From Vectrevirus T145P2: a stretch of 44,662 bases of DNA. The DNA lies in the sequence record OZ035802.1. The stretch is one strand, 5' to 3'. Shown here piece after piece: positions 5,515-14,613 of the stretch (position 1 is its first letter; the number at the start of each line of letters is the position of its first letter). A program made the position numbers and the translations under genes. Under the pieces are notes generated by a model that saw only the letters and a program-made list of their open reading frames with translations, searched no databases and was not told where the DNA came from.

Positions 5515-7950
5515 ATGATTCAAAGACTAGGTTCTTCATTAGTTAAATTCAAGAGTAAAATAGCAGGTGCAATCTGGCGTAACTTGGATGACAAGCTCAC
5601 CGAGGTTGTATCGCTTAAAGATTTTGGAGCCAAAGGTGATGGTAAGACAAACGACCAAGATGCAGTAAATGCAGCGATGGCTTCAGGTAAGAGAATTGAC
5701 GGTGCTGGTGCTACTTACAAAGTATCATCTTTACCTGATATGGAGCGATTCTATAACACCCGCTTCGTATGGGAACGTTTAGCAGGTCAACCTCTTTACT
5801 ATGTGAGTAAAGGTTTTATCAATGGTGAACTCTATAAAATCACGGATAACCCTTATTACAATGCTTGGCCTCAAGACAAAGCGTTTGTATATGAGAATGT
5901 GATATATGCACCCTACATGGGTAGCGACCGTCATGGCGTTAGTCGTCTGCATGTATCATGGGTTAAGTCTGGTGACGATGGTCAAACATGGTCTACTCCA
6001 GAGTGGCTAACTGATCTGCATCCAGATTACCCTACAGTGAACTATCATTGTATGAGTATGGGTGTATGTCGCAACCGTCTGTTTGCCATGATTGAAACAC
6101 GTACTTTAGCCAAGAACGCACTAACCAATTGTGCATTGTGGGATCGCCCTATGTCTCGTAGTCTGCATCTTACTGGTGGTATCACTAAGGCTGCAAATCA
6201 GAGATATGCAACAATCCATGTACCTGATCACGGACTATTCGTGGGCGATTTTGTTAACTTCTCTAATTCTGCGGTAACAGGTGTATCAGGTGATATGACT
6301 GTTGCAACGGTAATAGATAAGGACAACTTCACGGTTCTTACACCTAACCAGCAGACTTCAGATTTGAATAACGCTGGAAAGAGTTGGCACATGGGTACTT
6401 CTTTCCATAAGTCTCCATGGCGTAAGACAGATCTTGGTCTAATCCCTAGTGTCACAGAGGTGCATAGCTTTGCTACTATTGATAACAATGGCTTTGTTAT
6501 GGGCTATCATCAAGGTGATGTAGCTCCACGAGAAGTTGGTCTTTTCTACTTCCCTGATGCTTTCAATAGCCCATCTAATTATGTTCGTCGTCAGATACCA
6601 GCTGAGTATGAACCAGATGCGGCAGAGCCATGCATCAAGTACTATGACGGTGTATTATACCTTATCACTCGTGGTACTCGTGGCGACCGACTAGGAAGCT
6701 CTTTGCATCGTAGTAGAGATATAGGTCAGACTTGGGAGTCACTGAGATTTCCACATAATGTTCATCATACTACCTTACCTTTTGCTAAAGTAGGAGATGA
6801 CCTTATTATGTTTGGTTCAGAACGTGCAGAAAATGAATGGGAAGCAGGTGCACCAGATGATCGTTACAAGGCATCTTATCCTCGTACCTTCTATGCACGA
6901 TTGAATGTAAACAATTGGAATGCAGATGATATTGAATGGGTTAACATCACAGACCAAATCTATCAAGGTGACATTGTGAACTCTAGTGTAGGTGTAGGTT
7001 CTGTTGTAGTTAAAGACAGCTACATTTACTATATCTTTGGTGGTGAAAACCATTTCAACCCAATGACTTATGGTGACAACAAAGATAAAGACCCATTTAA
7101 AGGTCATGGACACCCTACTGATATATACTGCTATAAGATGCAGATTGCAAATGACAATCGTGTATCTCGTAAGTTTACATATGGTGCAACTCCTGGTCAG
7201 GCTATACCTACTTTCATGGGTACTGATGGAATACGAAATATCCCTGCACCTTTGTATTTCTCAGATAACATTGTTACAGAGGATACTAAAGTTGGACACT
7301 TAACACTTAAAGCAAGCACAAGTTCCAATATACGATCTGAAGTGCAGATGGAAGGTGAATATGGCTTTATTGGCAAGTCTGTTCCAAAGGACAACCCAAC
7401 TGGTCAACGTTTGATTATTTGTGGTGGAGAAGAGACTTCGTCATCTTCAGGTGCACAGATAACTTTGCACGGCTCTAATTCAAGTAATGCTAAGCGTATC
7501 ACTTATAACGGAAATGAGCACCTATTCCAAGGTGCACCAATCATGCCTGCTGTAGATAACCAGTTTGCTGCTGGTGGACCTAGTAACCGATTCACTACCA
7601 TCTACCTAGGTAGTGACCCTGTTACAACTTCAGATGCTGACCACAAGTACGGTATCTCTGGTATTAATACCAAGGTGTTAAAGGCTTGGAGCAGGGTTGG
7701 TTTTAAACAGTATGGTTTGAATAGTGAAGCAGAGAGGAATCTTGATAGCATACACTTCGGTGTCTTGGCTCAGGATATTGTAGCTGCTTTTGAAGCTGAA
7801 GGATTGGATGCCATTAAGTATGGAATTGTGTCCTTCGAAGAAGGTAGGTACGGTGTGAGATATAGTGAAGTTCTAATCCTAGAGGCTGCCTACACTCGCC
7901 ATCGTCTTGATAAATTAGAGGAGATGTATGCCGCTAATAAAATCAGTTAA
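5515..7950 (+). CDS. tailspike 2, endosialidase-like with C-terminal intramolecular chaperone domain
   Basis: 811 aa; two sialidase Asp-boxes (SGDDGQTW, SRDIGQTW); last ~105 aa resemble the autocleaving chaperone domain of endosialidases with SDADHK Ser-Lys motif; N-terminal SLKDFGAKGDG. Confidence 0.8.
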   Translation: MIQRLGSSLVKFKSKIAGAIWRNLDDKLTEVVSLKDFGAKGDGKTNDQDAVNAAMASGKRIDGAGATYKVSSLPDMERFYNTRFVWERLAGQPLYYVSKGFINGELYKITDNPYYNAWPQDKAFVYENVIYAPYMGSDRHGVSRLHVSWVKSGDDGQTWSTPEWLTDLHPDYPTVNYHCMSMGVCRNRLFAMIETRTLAKNALTNCALWDRPMSRSLHLTGGITKAANQRYATIHVPDHGLFVGDFVNFSNSAVTGVSGDMTVATVIDKDNFTVLTPNQQTSDLNNAGKSWHMGTSFHKSPWRKTDLGLIPSVTEVHSFATIDNNGFVMGYHQGDVAPREVGLFYFPDAFNSPSNYVRRQIPAEYEPDAAEPCIKYYDGVLYLITRGTRGDRLGSSLHRSRDIGQTWESLRFPHNVHHTTLPFAKVGDDLIMFGSERAENEWEAGAPDDRYKASYPRTFYARLNVNNWNADDIEWVNITDQIYQGDIVNSSVGVGSVVVKDSYIYYIFGGENHFNPMTYGDNKDKDPFKGHGHPTDIYCYKMQIANDNRVSRKFTYGATPGQAIPTFMGTDGIRNIPAPLYFSDNIVTEDTKVGHLTLKASTSSNIRSEVQMEGEYGFIGKSVPKDNPTGQRLIICGGEETSSSSGAQITLHGSNSSNAKRITYNGNEHLFQGAPIMPAVDNQFAAGGPSNRFTTIYLGSDPVTTSDADHKYGISGINTKVLKAWSRVGFKQYGLNSEAERNLDSIHFGVLAQDIVAAFEAEGLDAIKYGIVSFEEGRYGVRYSEVLILEAAYTRHRLDKLEEMYAANKIS

Positions 7951-8077
7951 GCAAGCTGCTGTACGCCAGAACGCAGAAGAACTTATTCAATCAGGACGTG
8001 ACCCTAAGCAGGCATACGCCATTGCCAAGGATGTACAACGTCGTGCCTTGAAGAAACCTTCTGCATCTTCTGCTTAA
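7928..8077 (+). CDS. hypothetical small basic ORF (49 aa) at right end
   Basis: ATG overlapping tailspike 3' end in another frame; no clear RBS. Confidence 0.2.
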   Translation: MPLIKSVKQAAVRQNAEELIQSGRDPKQAYAIAKDVQRRALKKPSASSA

Positions 8078-8283
8078 GCAGGTTAATATCTTAGTGTACA
8101 CAAGGGCAGACCTAGGTTTGCTCTTAGTGCCATCAAAGGAGGGTGTAGGTATGTTATCTTTGTTGTGTATACTCAGTGATGTCCTAGGTCGTAAGAGGTA
8201 CATTCTTAGTGAAGACCAAATAAGGGACGAGAAGATACGGAGGTCGCTCACAAAGTAACCAAAGTCAAAATTTTGATATAGGC

Positions 8284-8520
8284 GTGTGTGAGGTGTCTCG
8301 CCCTCGCCCTCGCCGGATTTCCCCCATATGGGGCCGCGCTGCGGTTGGCTTGGGAATTGGGCTGGGCTGGTCCGTCTTCGACGGGTGGCCTAGGGCTTGC
8401 CGAGGTCTGCTCTTAGTGGCTGCACAAGGAGAACGCCTAGGAAGCGCTAGGGCACGCCTTAGTATTGGACAAGGTGATTGCCTTAGTGCAACCGCTTAGG
8501 GCTTACACAGGCCGTTTTAG
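8284..8520. other. GC-rich island with CTCGCC x3 and CCCCCATATGGGG palindrome (terminal-repeat candidate)
   Basis: GC content visibly above genome background; T7 carries a similar CCCCCATAGGGGG near its left end as I recall. Confidence 0.4.
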
Positions 8521-8967
8521 GGCCATTCCTGAGCATTTGACAGGGTGAGCGTGGGTGGGCTATCTGTTCGTTTCGCTCCACTACGTTACGCTACACTCAC
8601 CGCGCTTGTGTATCCTTGGTATAATCCTGATGGATGGCTTAGGTTAGCCTTAGTGGGATACCTTAGTTAAAGCCTTAGTGCTTAGCTTAGTATCAACTTA
8701 GTAGTGTACCTTAGTAAGTCTTAGTGTCTTCTCTTAGTGATTGCATAGCTAAAGCTATAAGATGCAATTAGGTCGCGGTCGGTAGACCGCTAATAAGAAG
8801 TAATAGTAATAAGATGCAGTAGGAGGAACACCAGAAACCTAGCCAACCTAGTCTATCCTAGCTCTGTATCTATTGCTTTCCTTAGTCTCACATGTTAGAC
8901 AACCTAGGTTTACCTTAGCAGTTGTGACAGGTATCACATAAATAATCTATCTTAGTGCGATTTAGTG

Positions 8968-8996
8968 TTGACGTAGGCAGTTAACAGGTATACATT
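8968..8996 (+). promoter_or_regulatory. candidate host sigma70 early promoter
   Basis: TTGACG - 17 bp - TACATT. Confidence 0.4.
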
Positions 8997-9219
8997 AGCA
9001 ATCAGTCGGGAGCGACATTAAACACTCAGGGTGAATGATAGAGAGCGTCCTTAACTATCCGGCCTAGCTACTGAAGCCGTTAAACAATGTTAGATAGTGG
9101 AAGATGGCGCAAGCATAACCTACCACGATAAACCAAGGTTAGCGCAATGCTCTTTAACAATTTGCTTAGTGTAACCTGTGTATGCCGTGGTTAATTACTT
9201 ATTGAATGAGGAATTAACT

Positions 9220-9336
9220 ATGAATTATGAAGAAATGTATGAAGTCTATTTCGACTCATTAGATGAAGGAGAAGAAGCATTAACCTTCGCTGAGTTTATG
9301 GAGGCTTTATGGAGTTTCTATCATGACTCTAAATAA
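9220..9336 (+). CDS. hypothetical small acidic early protein (38 aa)
   Basis: ATG after GAGGAA; MNYEEMYEVYFDSLDEGEE... Confidence 0.35.
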   Translation: MNYEEMYEVYFDSLDEGEEALTFAEFMEALWSFYHDSK

Positions 9337-9502
9337 CCGTGAACTGTCCGTTCTCTTCACTCTGTTGTGCTACATGATTCGTAACAACGAATTACTTACG
9401 GAGGATGAGTTAGCCTTGTATCACCGATTCCTTAACGAAGGTTGGACCGATACAGTTAATCAATACCGTAACATGATAGATGAATTGAGGGAGGGTAAAT
9501 AA
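9323..9502 (+). CDS. hypothetical early protein (59 aa)
   Basis: ORF with overlapping start; stop overlaps next start. Confidence 0.4.
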   Translation: MTLNNRELSVLFTLLCYMIRNNELLTEDELALYHRFLNEGWTDTVNQYRNMIDELREGK

Positions 9503-9726
9503 TGTATCAACATGAGGTATTTTTTGAATCATCTAGCGAAGCTATTCGCTTCCACGATGATATGCTACAAGCTGGCGTAGGTGTTGATGTACATCACTTC
9601 CTACTAGATTACGACACTGAATATCACCGAGTTACCTTAGTATCTGAGTATGACAACCAAGTCATTACTGAGTATCTAGGTAGTGAAGATTATGATTACG
9701 ATGAAGTAATCACGACAAATCTCTAA
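9502..9726 (+). CDS. hypothetical acidic early protein (74 aa)
   Basis: AGGGAGGG RBS; D/E-rich with DYDYDE tail. Confidence 0.5.
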   Translation: MYQHEVFFESSSEAIRFHDDMLQAGVGVDVHHFLLDYDTEYHRVTLVSEYDNQVITEYLGSEDYDYDEVITTNL

Positions 9727-9734
9727 ATTAACTA

Positions 9735-9763
9735 TTGACAACCACGGCATACAAGGTTACATT
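9735..9763 (+). promoter_or_regulatory. candidate host sigma70 early promoter
   Basis: TTGACA - 17 bp - TACATT, same architecture as 8968. Confidence 0.4.
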
Positions 9764-10010
9764 AAGCATCAAGACGGCGACGTCTTTAAACATCACGCTC
9801 TTTAACAATAGAGATTAGGCCGGGAGTATCGGTGTGAGGGATAAGGAGGCTTTCCCACAATTAAACTGGTGGCAAAAGGATTGCCCAGCTTTATAGCCCA
9901 GTTATGGATAGCAATAGCGTAAGGATGGCAGCACACCCGCGAGTCTAATCTCTAGCTCTTTAACAATCTGGTTTGTGTCTTGATAGGCTTACTAACAAAG
10001 GTGAACTATC

Positions 10011-10175
10011 ATGACTAACGCACAACGTAAACGCTATGATGCATTGCAAGAGAAACTTGCTGTTGCTTATGCCGCTTGGCAAGCTAACACAGACAAGAGC
10101 AAACACGATAAACTTTATAGTAAAGTGGTTGCAATTAATGCTAAAATAGATAAACTTGTGAATAGTATCTTATAA
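10011..10175 (+). CDS. hypothetical basic early protein (54 aa)
   Basis: ATG after AAGGTGA; helical K-rich sequence. Confidence 0.4.
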   Translation: MTNAQRKRYDALQEKLAVAYAAWQANTDKSKHDKLYSKVVAINAKIDKLVNSIL

Positions 10176-10324
10176 GATAGTTGCTGGCACTAGCCAGCCT
10201 ATCAAGGCACAAGCCACGCTCTTTAACAATATGGGTAGTCGCTTCTTAGTCTGGATAGGTTAAACCTAGGGTATTCTTTTGAGTGCCCTATAATGTAACC
10301 TAACTAACTAATGAGGATTAAATC

Positions 10325-10654
10325 ATGGAACGCAACGCTAACGCTTACTACAACCTTCTGGCTGCAACTGTTGAAGCATTCAACGAGCGCATCAAGTACG
10401 ATGAGATTCGTGAAGATGATGATTACTCTGATGCACTGCATGAGGTTGTAGATAGCATGGTGCCAGTTTATTACAGCGAAATCTTTACTGTGATGGCTGC
10501 TGATGGCATTGATGTTGATTTTGAAGATGCTGGTTTGATTCCTGATACGAAGGATGTAACCAAGATTCTACAAGCTCGCATCTATGAAGCTCTTTATAAT
10601 GATGTACCAAATGACAGCGATGTAGTTTGGTATGAAGGCGAAGAAGAGGAATAA
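10325..10654 (+). CDS. ocr: Ocr-like DNA-mimic anti-restriction protein (T7 gene 0.3 homolog)
   Basis: 109 aa, very acidic; recognisable similarity to T7 Ocr as I recall it (IKYDEIREDDD...VPVYYSEIFTVMAADGIDVDFEDAGLIPDTKDV..ILQARIYE) and EEEE tail. Confidence 0.8.
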   Translation: MERNANAYYNLLAATVEAFNERIKYDEIREDDDYSDALHEVVDSMVPVYYSEIFTVMAADGIDVDFEDAGLIPDTKDVTKILQARIYEALYNDVPNDSDVVWYEGEEEE

Positions 10655-10658
10655 TAAG

Positions 10659-10772
10659 ATGGAAAGGCAATATAACTTCATATTTTCAGACGGTGTAACC
10701 CTGAAATGTTCCTTACGATTTGCGCAGATTCGTGAGGAAGTGCTAGGTACTACATACAAACTATTTAGCTGA
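10659..10772 (+). CDS. hypothetical small ORF (37 aa)
   Basis: ATG 5 nt after ocr stop; overlaps the 10763 promoter; weak. Confidence 0.25.
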   Translation: MERQYNFIFSDGVTLKCSLRFAQIREEVLGTTYKLFS

Positions 10773-10787
10773 CACTATAAGAGAAGG
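10763..10787 (+). promoter_or_regulatory. variant SP6-like phage promoter
   Basis: ATTTAGCTGACACTATAAGAGAAGG. Confidence 0.45.
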
Positions 10788-10848
10788 CTTAACAAGGCGT
10801 TGCTACGGTAGCGCCTGATTAAACTTTCACTTACTAGAGGTTAAGATT

Positions 10849-10974
10849 ATGAAACTATCGCCATCCGCTAAAGGCCTCATTGCAGAACTTAAAGATTCTT
10901 TGAGGAATCCAATCATTTGGGCACTTATCTACATACCTTATGGTATCTACCTATTTCACCTCATCACTGAGTAA
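10849..10974 (+). CDS. hypothetical small membrane protein (41 aa)
   Basis: AGAGG RBS; hydrophobic C-terminal half IIWALIYIPYGIYLFHLI. Confidence 0.35.
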   Translation: MKLSPSAKGLIAELKDSLRNPIIWALIYIPYGIYLFHLITE

Positions 10975-11037
10975 CTAGCCTATAGCCTACCTGAGTGGGC
11001 TATGTGATACTTACTTACACTATATAAGGTGATTACT

Positions 11038-11922
11038 ATGACTACTGAAAACGTCCTCCTGTCTGTTCGTGAAGCTGCAACCGCTGAAATCAAGCAGCAC
11101 TTAGACAATATCGGCACTTCTTACATCAAAGTTGGCGCTTGTCTGAATGAATTACGCGGTGATTTCGAAGGTCAAAAAGACTTTTTAGCTTATGTAGAAT
11201 CAGAGTTCGGCATCAAGAAGGCACAATGCTACAAGCTGATGAGTGTAGCCCGTGTCTTTGAAGGAGACGAACGCTTTAAAGGTGTGGCTATGCGTGTAAT
11301 GTTGGCGCTTGTTCCTTTCGCTGATGAAAATATAATCATGGAGAAGGCCGCAGAACTCGCCGCAGCTGGCAAGCTGGACACTAATGCCGTAAACGCCCTG
11401 ATTGAACCTAAGAAAGAGATAAAGACTGAAACGGTACAATCTAAGGCTGAGGCGGTAAAACAGCAGGAGAACGCTACTGAGGCCGCAGAATCACAGGAAA
11501 TGCAAGCGCCGCAGGTAGTGCCACCAGCGAGCGAGCAGGAGGCCGACGAATCAGCACCATGGGAAGAGGAAAGCAAGCCGGAAGCGCCAAAGGCAGCGCC
11601 GCTGGATAACACGGCTAATACCGAAAACGCCGCTATGGCTAGCCTCTTAGCACAAATTAAGGCACTGACTGAGCAATTACAGGCAGCTAATGACCGCATC
11701 GCCTCCTTAAGTAGCGCACGCGAAAGCAAGAAGGCAGCCGCACCTATGCTGCCGCAATTCAAATCTTCCTGCTTCTATGCTCGCTTAGGTTTAAGCGCTG
11801 AGGAGGCAACGAAGAAAACAGCAGTTAACAAGGCACGCCGCGAACTGGTTAAGCTAGGCTATGGTGAAGGCCATGAAGCATGGCCCTTAATCTCTGAGGC
11901 AGTAGAAGAGTTGACTAAGTAA
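11038..11922 (+). CDS. hypothetical early protein with acidic Ala/Pro/Glu-rich linker
   Basis: 294 aa; AAGG RBS; sits just upstream of RNAP like T7 gene 0.7, but no kinase motifs seen. Confidence 0.6.
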   Translation: MTTENVLLSVREAATAEIKQHLDNIGTSYIKVGACLNELRGDFEGQKDFLAYVESEFGIKKAQCYKLMSVARVFEGDERFKGVAMRVMLALVPFADENIIMEKAAELAAAGKLDTNAVNALIEPKKEIKTETVQSKAEAVKQQENATEAAESQEMQAPQVVPPASEQEADESAPWEEESKPEAPKAAPLDNTANTENAAMASLLAQIKALTEQLQAANDRIASLSSARESKKAAAPMLPQFKSSCFYARLGLSAEEATKKTAVNKARRELVKLGYGEGHEAWPLISEAVEELTK

Positions 11923-11985
11923 CCTTATCGGTGGCATCTTCTTAGGTGTCACCTATTAAGGTTTCTTTCACTAGGAGTAAACAAG

Positions 11986-14613
11986 ATGCAAGACCTACAC
12001 GCTATTCAACTTCAACTTGAAGAAGAAATGTTTAACGGCGGTATCCGTCGCTTTGAAGCGGACCAACAACGCCAGATTGCATCCGGTAATGAATCAGACA
12101 CGGCATGGAATCGCCGCTTATTGTCCGAACTAATCGCACCTATGGCGGAAGGTATTCAGGCTTACAAGGAAGAATACGAAGGCAAGAGAGGTCGTGCACC
12201 ACGTGCATTAGCTTTCATTAACTGCGTAGGAAACGAAGTGGCAGCATATATCACCATGAAAATCGTTATGGATATGCTGAATACAGACGTTACCTTACAA
12301 GCAATCGCTATGAATGTAGCGGACCGCATCGAAGACCAAGTACGTTTTAGCAAGCTGGAAGGTCACGCAGCTAAGTACTTTGAGAAAGTGAAGAAGTCAC
12401 TTAAGGCTAGCAAGACTAAATCTTATCGTCATGCGCACAACGTAGCGGTAGTAGCTGAGAAATCTGTTGCTGACCGTGACGCGGATTTCTCCCGTTGGGA
12501 GGCATGGCCTAAAGACACCTTGCTGCAAATCGGTATGACCTTGCTCGAAATATTGGAGAATAGTGTATTCTTCAATGGTCAACCTGTCTTCCTTCGTACC
12601 TTGCGCACTAACGGCGGAAAGCATGGTGTTTACTATTTACAGACCAGTGAACATGTTGGAGAGTGGATAACTGCATTTAAGGAACATGTAGCGCAGCTCA
12701 GCCCTGCCTATGCACCTTGCGTTATACCTCCCCGCCCTTGGGTATCACCTTTTAACGGTGGGTTTCATACTGAGAAAGTAGCAAGCCGTATTCGTCTGGT
12801 AAAAGGCAATCGTGAGCACGTCCGCAAGCTGACCAAAAAGCAAATGCCAGCCGTTTATAAGGCTGTTAACGCTTTGCAGGCAACTAAGTGGCAGGTTAAT
12901 AAAGAGGTTTTACAGGTTGTGGAGGACGTTATACGTCTAGACCTCGGCTATGGTGTGCCTTCCTTTAAACCACTCATCGACCGTGAGAACAAGCCAGCTA
13001 ATCCAGTGCCGTTAGAGTTCCAGCACCTGCGAGGCCGTGAACTTAAAGAGATGCTAACGCCGGAACAATGGCAAGCCTTCATCAACTGGAAAGGCGAATG
13101 TACCAAGCTGTATACCGCTGAAACTAAGCGCGGCAGCAAATCGGCGGCGACCGTCCGCATGGTTGGGCAGGCACGTAAATACAGCCAGTTTGACGCCATC
13201 TACTTCGTGTATGCACTGGACAGCCGCAGCCGCGTCTACGCGCAATCTAGCACGCTCTCTCCGCAATCAAACGACTTAGGCAAGGCATTGCTCCGTTTTA
13301 CCGAAGGGCAGCGCCTTGATAGCGCTGAGGCGCTTAAATGGTTTTTGGTGAACGGGGCTAATAACTGGGGTTGGGATAAGAAGACTTTTGACGTGCGCAC
13401 CGCTAACGTGCTGGATAGTGAATTTCAAGACATGTGCCGCGACATTGCAGCGGATCCGCTTACCTTCACTCAATGGGTGAATGCCGAATCCCCTTACGGC
13501 TTCCTTGCTTGGTGCTTTGAATATGCGCGTTATCTGGATGCACTGGATGAAGGCACGCAAGACCAATTCATGACGCACCTCCCCGTCCATCAAGATGGTA
13601 GTTGTTCTGGTATCCAGCACTACAGTGCTATGCTACGCGATGCAGTAGGTGCGAAAGCGGTAAACCTTAAGCCCTCTGACTCCCCTCAAGATATTTATGG
13701 TGCCGTTGCGCAGGTAGTAATTCAGAAGAATTATGCATACATGAATGCAGAGGATGCGGAAACCTTCACTTCTGGCAGCGTGACTTTAACAGGTGCGGAA
13801 CTGCGTAGCATGGCTAGTGCGTGGGATATGATAGGAATCACTCGCGGCCTGACCAAAAAGCCCGTAATGACACTACCTTACGGCAGCACACGTCTAACCT
13901 GCCGTGAGTCAGTGATTGATTATATCGTTGATTTGGAAGAAAAAGAGGCCCAACGGGCTATTGCGGAAGGGCGTACCGCCAATCCTGTACATCCTTTTGA
14001 TAATGACCGCAAAGACAGCCTGACACCTAGCGCAGCTTATAACTATATGACAGCTTTAATCTGGCCTTCTATTTCGGAAGTGGTTAAAGCTCCTATAGTG
14101 GCAATGAAAATGATTCGTCAGCTTGCACGTTTCGCAGCTAAAAGAAACGAAGGCTTAGAATATCCCTTACCAACTGGCTTCATCTTGCAACAAAAGATAA
14201 TGGCTACCGATATGCTCCGCGTATCCACTTGCTTGATGGGTGAAATCAAGATGAGTCTCCAGATTGAAACAGATGTAGTTGATGAAACGGCAATGATGGG
14301 TGCGGCTGCTCCTAACTTCGTCCATGGTCACGATGCTAGCCACCTGATTCTGACTGTATGTGACCTGGTGGATAAAGGTATTACATCCATTGCAGTCATC
14401 CATGATTCTTTCGGTACTCATGCAGGACGTACCGCAGACCTGCGGGATAGCTTAAGGGAAGAAATGGTTAAGATGTATCAAAACCATAATGCCCTGCAAA
14501 ACCTGCTAGATGTGCACGAAGAGCGTTGGTTAGTAGACACCGGAATCCAAGTACCAGAGCAAGGAGAGTTTGACCTTAACGAAATCTTAGTTTCAGACTA
14601 TTGTTTCGCATAA
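11986..14613 (+). CDS. single-subunit DNA-dependent RNA polymerase (SP6-type)
   Basis: 875 aa; N-terminus [32 protein letters not shown] nearly matches SP6 RNAP as I recall it; conserved [14 protein letters not shown] and HDSFGTH motifs. Confidence 0.97.

Follow-up and report, generated by a model that had tools for sequence, protein, structure and literature searches.

BoxA and the Nus factors are textbook elements of phage lambda and of ribosomal RNA (rRNA) operons. In the rRNA (rrn) operons, both the leader and the 16S–23S spacer contain nut-like elements in the order boxB, boxA, boxC, and the RNA past boxA forms the primary RNase III site together with a complementary stretch downstream of 16S (PMC8632103). 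It has been proposed that the boxA-bound Nus/SuhB complex retains the 5' strand of this helix at the polymerase and "delivers" it to the 3' strand (PMC8632103). The γ-proteobacterial boxA consensus is GYTCTTTAANA (PMC5725501), and an antiterminator RNA oligonucleotide from E. coli rrnG reads CACugcucuuuaacaauuua (PMC2724277). Here, we describe a sequence of 13 nucleotides (nt), GCTCTTTAACAAT, that is repeated in the early region of Vectrevirus T145P2 and that, judged from its letters, is a boxA of the rrn type. The DNA analysed (sequence record OZ035802.1; 44,662 nt, referred to below as the window) represents, in circularly permuted form, the genome of a K1E/K1-5/SP6-like podovirus (Autographiviridae, Molineuxvirinae, Vectrevirus). 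We consider it likely that the layout of its early operon is that of an rRNA operon in miniature, with a Nus complex loading at every boxA and the stems being processed by RNase III.

The window contains exactly four copies of GCTCTTTAACAAT, all on the plus strand and within 1.1 kb:

9149..9161, plus strand: boxA copy 1, exact GCTCTTTAACAAT, fits GYTCTTTAANA, single-stranded in the global fold
9797..9809, plus strand: boxA copy 2, exact GCTCTTTAACAAT, fits GYTCTTTAANA
9955..9967, plus strand: boxA copy 3, exact GCTCTTTAACAAT, fits GYTCTTTAANA
10218..10230, plus strand: boxA copy 4, exact GCTCTTTAACAAT, fits GYTCTTTAANA

The four positions given in a first-pass annotation of the window were confirmed, and no exact match was found in 100 dinucleotide-preserving shuffles. 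The accompanying statement that each copy lies between early genes holds for copies 2–4, which are intergenic; copy 1 is located upstream of the first early open reading frame (ORF). The only further match with up to two mismatches is an unrelated minus-strand site at 7270. The consensus GYTCTTTAANA is itself matched exactly four times in the 44.6-kb window (0.25 expected), always on the plus strand in the early region. These counts, as well as the identity with boxA, bear out the earlier view that the repeat is not a coincidence.

The phage 13-mer is identical over 13 nt to the rrnG boxA plus the first spacer bases (GCUCUUUAACAAU), and the upstream CAC of the rrnG oligonucleotide is also present at copies 2 and 4. 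In an E. coli rrn operon, used as a control, the leader boxA is GCTCTTTAACAAT. All four phage copies have the sequence of an rrn-type boxA (GYTCTTTAANA or the rrn UGCUCUUUAACAA), are located on the plus strand downstream of predicted σ70-like sites (8968 and 9735), and are unpaired in both the minimum free energy (MFE) and the centroid structures of 9149–10330. A boxA is already known in T7, downstream of the early promoters A1–A3, where GCTCTTTAACAATCTGG is located between A3 and gene 0.3; the 13-mer does not differ between the two phages, and in T7 CTGG comes next, as at copy 3 here. Mutations in this T7 anti-termination element are reported to render the host-polymerase inhibitor Gp2 dispensable (PMC3709561, from the Severinov and Wigneshweraraj groups, citing Savalia et al. 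2010). Because of its identity to the rrn boxA, its match to the consensus and the T7 boxA, the 13-mer belongs, as far as sequence can tell, to a known class of elements, the rrn-type boxA in RNA synthesized by the host polymerase. NusB–NusE would be expected to bind it, with recruitment of NusA, NusG and SuhB to the polymerase.

Two other described systems can be compared. In the nutL and nutR sites of lambda, boxA RNA likewise nucleates a Nus-factor complex on the host polymerase early in infection. However, the motif studied here is the full rrn consensus with an extra U, not lambda CGCUCUUA; its hairpin is found before boxA, as in rrn, and the motif is followed by one strand of a cassette-wide helix rather than by a 15-nt boxB. 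The combination of CGCUCUUA, boxB and N that makes up a lambda-type nut system was not found; no N-like protein was identified, and no search for one was made. The boxA in the 5' untranslated region of suhB, which serves Nus-factor autoregulation, conforms to the same GYTCTTTAANA consensus and likewise precedes a protein-coding gene, but the phage copies come as repeats, each of them linked to a long-range helix.

The sequences directly past copies 1 and 3 are predicted to form helices that enclose the cassettes downstream of them:

9163..9192, plus strand: 5' arm of long-range stem 1, beginning 1–2 nt past boxA copy 1 (inverted repeats I2 and I3)
9221..9726, plus strand: payload of stem 1, three small early ORFs that end at 9336, 9502 and 9726 (ORF list)
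9740..9768, plus strand: 3' arm of long-range stem 1 (inverted repeats, duplex energy, covariation and global fold)
9969..9994, plus strand: 5' arm of long-range stem 2, beginning 1–2 nt past boxA copy 3 (inverted repeat I1, 26 nt)
10011..10175, plus strand: payload of stem 2, an early ORF of 54 amino acids, homologue of K1E gp2.8
10191..10216, plus strand: 3' arm of long-range stem 2, ending 1 nt before boxA copy 4

Stem 1 consists of 27 base pairs (bp) with one bulge and has a duplex energy of −45 to −48 kcal/mol, while stem 2 consists of 21 bp (−42 kcal/mol). Homologues of the stem 1 ORFs are annotated as hypothetical proteins in relatives. The two arm pairs adjoining boxA were the top inverted repeats of the early region in an unbiased repeat search. 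In the global fold of the 1,182-nt region 9149–10330, four closed domains are present in both the MFE and the centroid structures, with every boxA in a single-stranded linker.

This arrangement bears on the suggestion, made in the first-pass annotation, that the repeats are RNase III-like processing sites. In its strict form, the 13-mer itself would be the site of RNase III or of another endonuclease and would mark the boundaries of early mRNAs, which would suit the location of the copies at cassette boundaries and the known cutting of T7-group early RNAs by RNase III. The enzyme, however, needs about two turns of double-stranded RNA, and the motif is rich in A and U and stays unpaired in all predicted folds. 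In addition, the known partner of the identical sequence is NusB–NusE, and the T7 copy is located upstream of the R0.3 hairpin, not inside it. Cleavage at the motif is thus highly improbable in our view. The part of the suggestion that stands concerns the adjoining helices, which measure 21–27 bp, two of them with covariation; long helices of this kind are cut by RNase III in rRNA precursors and in T7 early RNA. About two turns or more of double-stranded RNA are available in stem 1, stem 2 and the hairpin of the ocr leader (see below); the closing stem of the non-coding cassette X, also described below, has just 13 bp.

Covariation was examined in MAFFT alignments that were anchored at boxA and not fitted to structure. 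For stem 1 (alignment A2; 28 pairs), 98.2% of the cells are paired and 5 pairs have changed on both sides; none of 500 shuffles was as high in paired cells and covariation score. For stem 2 (alignment A1; 19 pairs), 97.1% of the cells are paired, with 9 pairs changed on both sides. Again, 0/500 shuffles were as high, and a slid partner was paired at 24–45%. G-U cells outnumber A-C cells by 41 to 9, and of the sense and antisense duplexes, the sense one is usually the more stable. The G-U excess and the more stable sense duplex therefore point to selection acting on plus-strand RNA rather than on a DNA palindrome.

The association between boxA and helix extends to related phages. Across all loci, we compared 57 distinct pairs of successive boxA-like sites, in each case by the duplex between the 40 nt that follow the first site and the 55 nt that precede the second. 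The duplex energy lies between −28 and −58 kcal/mol in all 37 distinct SP6-like and Colwellvirinae cassettes, compared to −16.3±4.8 kcal/mol for control windows from the same loci, and the 5' arm begins at +1 or +2 past the motif in 37/37. The E. coli rrn control behaves in the same manner, as the bases just past the leader boxA pair with sequence 3' of 16S (−56.6 kcal/mol) in a helix that starts at +1. Thus, the phage cassettes resemble rrn in having the 5' strand of a helix directly past the motif, the 3' strand beyond a long payload, and a new boxA before the next payload. They differ from rrn in their payloads, which are small cassettes that encode proteins, or a non-coding domain of 145 nt, instead of rRNA, in their stems of 13–30 bp, one of which has a promoter in its 3' arm, in the number of copies (up to five per operon), and in arms without a clear boxC sequence.

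Another arrangement, a local hairpin with boxA in its loop, formed by the 3' arm of one cassette and the 5' arm of the next, was judged on SP6 and on loci L073, L149 and L151. It was rejected as a general rule because it can form only between neighbours with a common arm type, while the pairing that encloses a cassette holds in all cases.

All 29 SP6-like loci contain 2–5 boxA copies, on the plus strand and upstream of the RNA polymerase gene. These loci include K1-5, K1E, SP6, LL11, ULINTec4/6, mutPK1A2, PSK8, ACG-C91, a Salmonella Zindervirus and 14 IMG/VR contigs. Conservation in relatives, which had been proposed as a check of the first-pass reading, was therefore observed for the motif and, through compensatory changes, for the pairing. 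Bases 1–12 of the motif are almost invariant across relatives, while position 13 is T, C, A or G. Four copies are present in a Klebsiella phage with a polymerase 62% identical, three in the Pseudomonas phage Achelous (Colwellvirinae, 42%), and one each in T7 and Erwinia phage Era103. In distant phages, the layout is kept and the arm sequences are unrelated: AACTAGATAGTGACCTGATAGGCTT is found with AAGCCTATCAGGTTACTATCTAGTT at locus L121, and GGAAGGTGTAGTGATAGGCT with AGCCTATCACTCCACCTTCC at locus L149. The helix of Achelous has 31 consecutive pairs inside a 33-bp duplex. Neither boxA nor the helices are annotated in the public records of these phages that we examined.

A group of ∼30 IMG/VR loci (among them L017, L022, L031, L041, L050 and L055) has an A-run and a hairpin (aaaaaagcgccctacaggacgctta) followed by GCTCTTTAACAATCTGG in a single copy; they probably represent another phage group that uses an rrn-type boxA. 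One further record, OR594181.1 (vB_EcoM_SHAK7704), is labelled Kayfunavirus and bears a myovirus-style name, and its early boxA region is annotated as 'DNA primase/helicase' and a 684-nt 'hypothetical protein'. It looks like a mis-annotated Vectrevirus genome.

Alternatively, the boxA copies could mainly be decoys, with abundant early RNA or small boxA fragments from processing drawing NusB, S10 and SuhB off the host rrn operons and adding to host shut-off, or they could repress translation of the downstream ORFs. Such roles would be in line with several copies per transcript behind strong-looking predicted promoters, and boxA-mediated translational repression has been documented for suhB (PMC5725501). 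However, a decoy does not need a 1:1 pairing of boxA and helix with a start at +1. The phage copies also lie upstream of the next start codon by 40–100 nt, whereas a distance of 6 nt separates the suhB boxA from its Shine-Dalgarno sequence. We consider it quite unlikely that titration or repression is the main role.

Cassettes are shuffled among relatives (L002–L011 and L148), with a boxA at each junction. SP6 has a type 2 followed by a type 1 cassette, K1E has a type 1 followed by two type 2 cassettes, and ULINTec4 has five boxA copies. The sequences upstream of the first boxA belong to several unrelated types, which switch exactly at the motif. The varying order and number of cassettes and these switches could mean that the repeats are mainly recombination linkers at the DNA level, with the inverted repeats as relics of exchange, as could the 145-nt cassette, which relatives either have or lack as a whole between two boxA copies. 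Recombination does not explain, however, the identity with the host rrn boxA from Escherichia to Pseudomonas phages, the plus-strand orientation, the compensatory changes in the arms, the excess of G-U over A-C, or the T7 genetics. It is unlikely to be the main reason for the repeats and is best viewed as a consequence that coexists with an RNA function; judging from the cassette orders, phages probably exchange cassettes by recombination at the boxA junctions that they have in common.

The region between stems 1 and 2 contains a hairpin and the non-coding cassette:

9771..9786, plus strand: small hairpin AAGACG-GCGA-CGUCUU, followed by CAC and boxA copy 2 (fold z-score −3.8)
9810..9954, plus strand: non-coding 145-nt cassette X, a closed structured domain with a 13-bp terminal stem (9810–9822 with 9940–9953)

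The hairpin at 9771–9786 sits where rrn has the boxB hairpin. The E. coli rrn control shows a hairpin, then CAC/ACT, then boxA, and hairpin and CAC thus precede boxA in rrn as at phage copy 2. Transcripts from an internal promoter near 9770 would start with the hairpin, CAC and boxA, like an rrn leader. A second hairpin upstream of a boxA is found at 10183–10198, before copy 4, while no clear hairpin is present upstream of copy 1.

As the first-pass annotation had claimed, the segment flanked by copies 2 and 3 has complementary ends: AGAGATTAG (9810–9818) and CTAATCTCT (9945–9953) make up the outer part of the 13-bp stem, which adjoins boxA copies 2 and 3. Folding, the check it had suggested, gave −46.9 kcal/mol for 9810–9954 with this closing stem (z −2.1; better than 194/200 shuffles). 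We also found no credible plus-strand ORF in 9727–10010, in agreement with the annotation; the candidates are a 27-amino-acid TTG frame that runs over the promoter and boxA, and a 20-amino-acid GVG-start (GTG) frame without a ribosome-binding site. Its suggestion of a small structured RNA holds insofar as the segment folds as a closed, ORF-less 145-nt domain. The design is that of the coding cassettes on a smaller scale, and a processed small RNA is plausible from the predicted fold.

Cassette X is either there in full between two boxA copies or missing altogether, and it occurs in 8 of about 104 related records, with identities of 98.6% or more (distant blastn against phage records). No Rfam covariance match to the segment was obtained at an E-value of 10 or below, and ARAGORN found no tRNA or tmRNA. 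A blastn search of 9780–9985 against 5,426 E. coli genomes gave no match, and the segment is therefore not host-copied. The Klebsiella phage vB_Kpn_K13PH07C1L (L149) has a second ORF-less cassette flanked by boxA, of 205 nt (2352–2582), whose 11-bp arms (GGTGATGTAAG/CTTACATCACC) adjoin both boxA copies; the 145-nt segment has no homology to it.

Inside cassette X, a perfect AAGGAGG (9843–9849) is located around a hairpin loop. An open frame from ATT 9860 or GTG 9869 to TAA 9920–9922 would encode a hydrophobic peptide of 17–20 amino acids, (IKL)VAKGLPSFIAQLWIAIA. This frame was not counted as a gene, as its spacing and start codons are poor.

The end of stem 2 and the region past copy 4 contain the following features:

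10183..10198, plus strand: hairpin GCUGGC-ACUA-GCCAGC (fold z −4.8), directly 3' of the 54-amino-acid ORF, adjoining and overlapping the beginning of the stem 2 3' arm
10236..10320, plus strand: long irregular local hairpin of 85 nt, the ocr leader (fold −34.4 kcal/mol, z −5.0)
10325..10654, plus strand: ocr-like anti-restriction gene, first to follow the last boxA (annotated ocr in relatives)

Relatives retain a hairpin at the position of 10183–10198 with other sequences (CCAGC/GCTGG, GCTTGC/GCAAGC). The unit of copy 4, hairpin and ocr aligns with, and has the layout of, boxA, R0.3 and gene 0.3 in T7, and it also aligns with SP6 and K1-5. The upper stem of the leader hairpin shows compensatory changes (GGGTAT/GTGCCC in the window, GGAGAT/GTCTCC in K1-5, AGGAGG/CCTCCT in SP6). 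No long-range partner above background was found for the sequence after copy 4 (best −26.9 kcal/mol) or after the T7 boxA (best −29.7 kcal/mol). T7 differs in having a single boxA. Its RNase III sites are several and are local hairpins.

In the proposed mechanism, the host RNA polymerase would transcribe the early region from the left end of the K1E/SP6-like genome, and each boxA RNA would bind NusB–NusE(S10). NusA, NusG and SuhB would then join, giving an rrn-type complex resistant to Rho-dependent termination that would keep the boxA-proximal RNA at the RNA exit channel of the polymerase. The 5' arm would remain tethered there until the 3' arm emerges, which would favour the long-range helix, and RNase III would cut this helix, as in the 16S precursor. 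Since cleavage would sever the link between boxA and the polymerase, a fresh boxA would be provided before the next cassette, as the rrn spacer boxA is before 23S. The last boxA, together with the T7 R0.3-like hairpin, would serve ocr and the genes up to that of the phage RNA polymerase. The 1:1 association of boxA and helix and their adjacency at +1 are better explained by such a tether-and-process model than by antitermination alone.

Several points weigh against the comparison with an rRNA operon. Nus binding, antitermination and RNase III cleavage in this phage group are all inferred, as is the reason for the repetition of boxA. T7 works with one boxA despite several RNase III sites, so that reloading is not obligatory; since a single copy is sufficient there, it is not a universal need. 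An invariant σ70-like promoter lies in the 3' arm of stem 1, and the conservation of this arm is partly due to the promoter, not to pairing. The relative L144 has no 3' partner of stem 1 (−16.8 kcal/mol), and the stem is thus dispensable there. The 145-nt domain has no covariation support, as its 8 copies differ by 1–2 bases, too few for a test of structure or coding. The third SP6 copy, GATCTTTAACAAT, deviates from the consensus, and the shuffle control for pair counts ignores phylogeny. The L144 locus (1784–2388 of IMG/VR contig 3300045988_002160) retains a type-1 5' arm and has a different promoter-like sequence before the next boxA.

The early region and its surroundings contain these further features:

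end at 7950: endosialidase tailspike ORF
about 8900 to 11950: early region
8968..8996, plus strand: predicted σ70-like promoter, TTGACG-17-TACATT, 9/12 matches in a consensus scan, upstream of boxA copy 1
9735..9763, plus strand: predicted σ70-like promoter, TTGACA-17-TACATT, 10/12 matches, inside the 3' arm of stem 1
11986–14613: SP6-type RNA polymerase gene

The promoter at 9735 is the strongest promoter-like match of the region in the consensus scan, and its TTGAC and TACATT hexamers are invariant across 17 relatives. Strong local hairpins are located at 10772–10842, between early ORFs (z −4.5), and at 11921–11963, just upstream of the RNA polymerase gene (z −4.75). They are candidate T7-like RNase III sites, analogues of R0.5 and R1. 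The sole Rfam match in 7900–12000 at an E-value of 10 or below is a chance miRNA-like match on the hairpin at 10772–10842. The heptamer CTTAGTG has 11 plus-strand copies within 1.1 kb (8090–9171), and 23 in the whole window (7.65 expected). These repeats surround a G+C-rich stretch (8284–8560), which probably marks the genome end or a terminal repeat, and are similar to the short repeat arrays beside T7-group terminal repeats; one copy is located within the 5' arm of stem 1.

The boxA copies in the SP6 and K1-5 genomes may already be on record. In the literature searched (full text, on the arm sequences and on boxA in SP6, K1-5 or Autographiviridae), we found no description of cassette-wide helices tied to boxA or of an rrn-like design, and no transcript end data for K1E, K1-5 or SP6. 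More tentatively, SP6/K1E-like phages and at least one phage of the Colwellvirinae could have an early operon that mimics an rRNA operon throughout, with reloading at each cassette, looping, and excision by RNase III. The segment 9810–9954 would then be released as a small RNA, and the released boxA fragments may drain NusB/S10 from the rrn operons of the host; we regard this full version as possible but doubtful.

With up to five boxA copies, each in 1:1 association with a covarying cassette-wide helix, these early operons would be a natural non-ribosomal test bed for a debated question, namely whether the Nus complex is mainly an antiterminator or an RNA-looping chaperone that delivers the 5' strand of an RNase III stem. 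The cassettes are short (150–650 nt) and movable, and phage growth can be scored. The findings also point to regulatory RNA that has so far escaped annotation, in genomes that show nothing in this region at present, and the layout explains the modular shuffling of early genes in therapeutic K1-specific phages.

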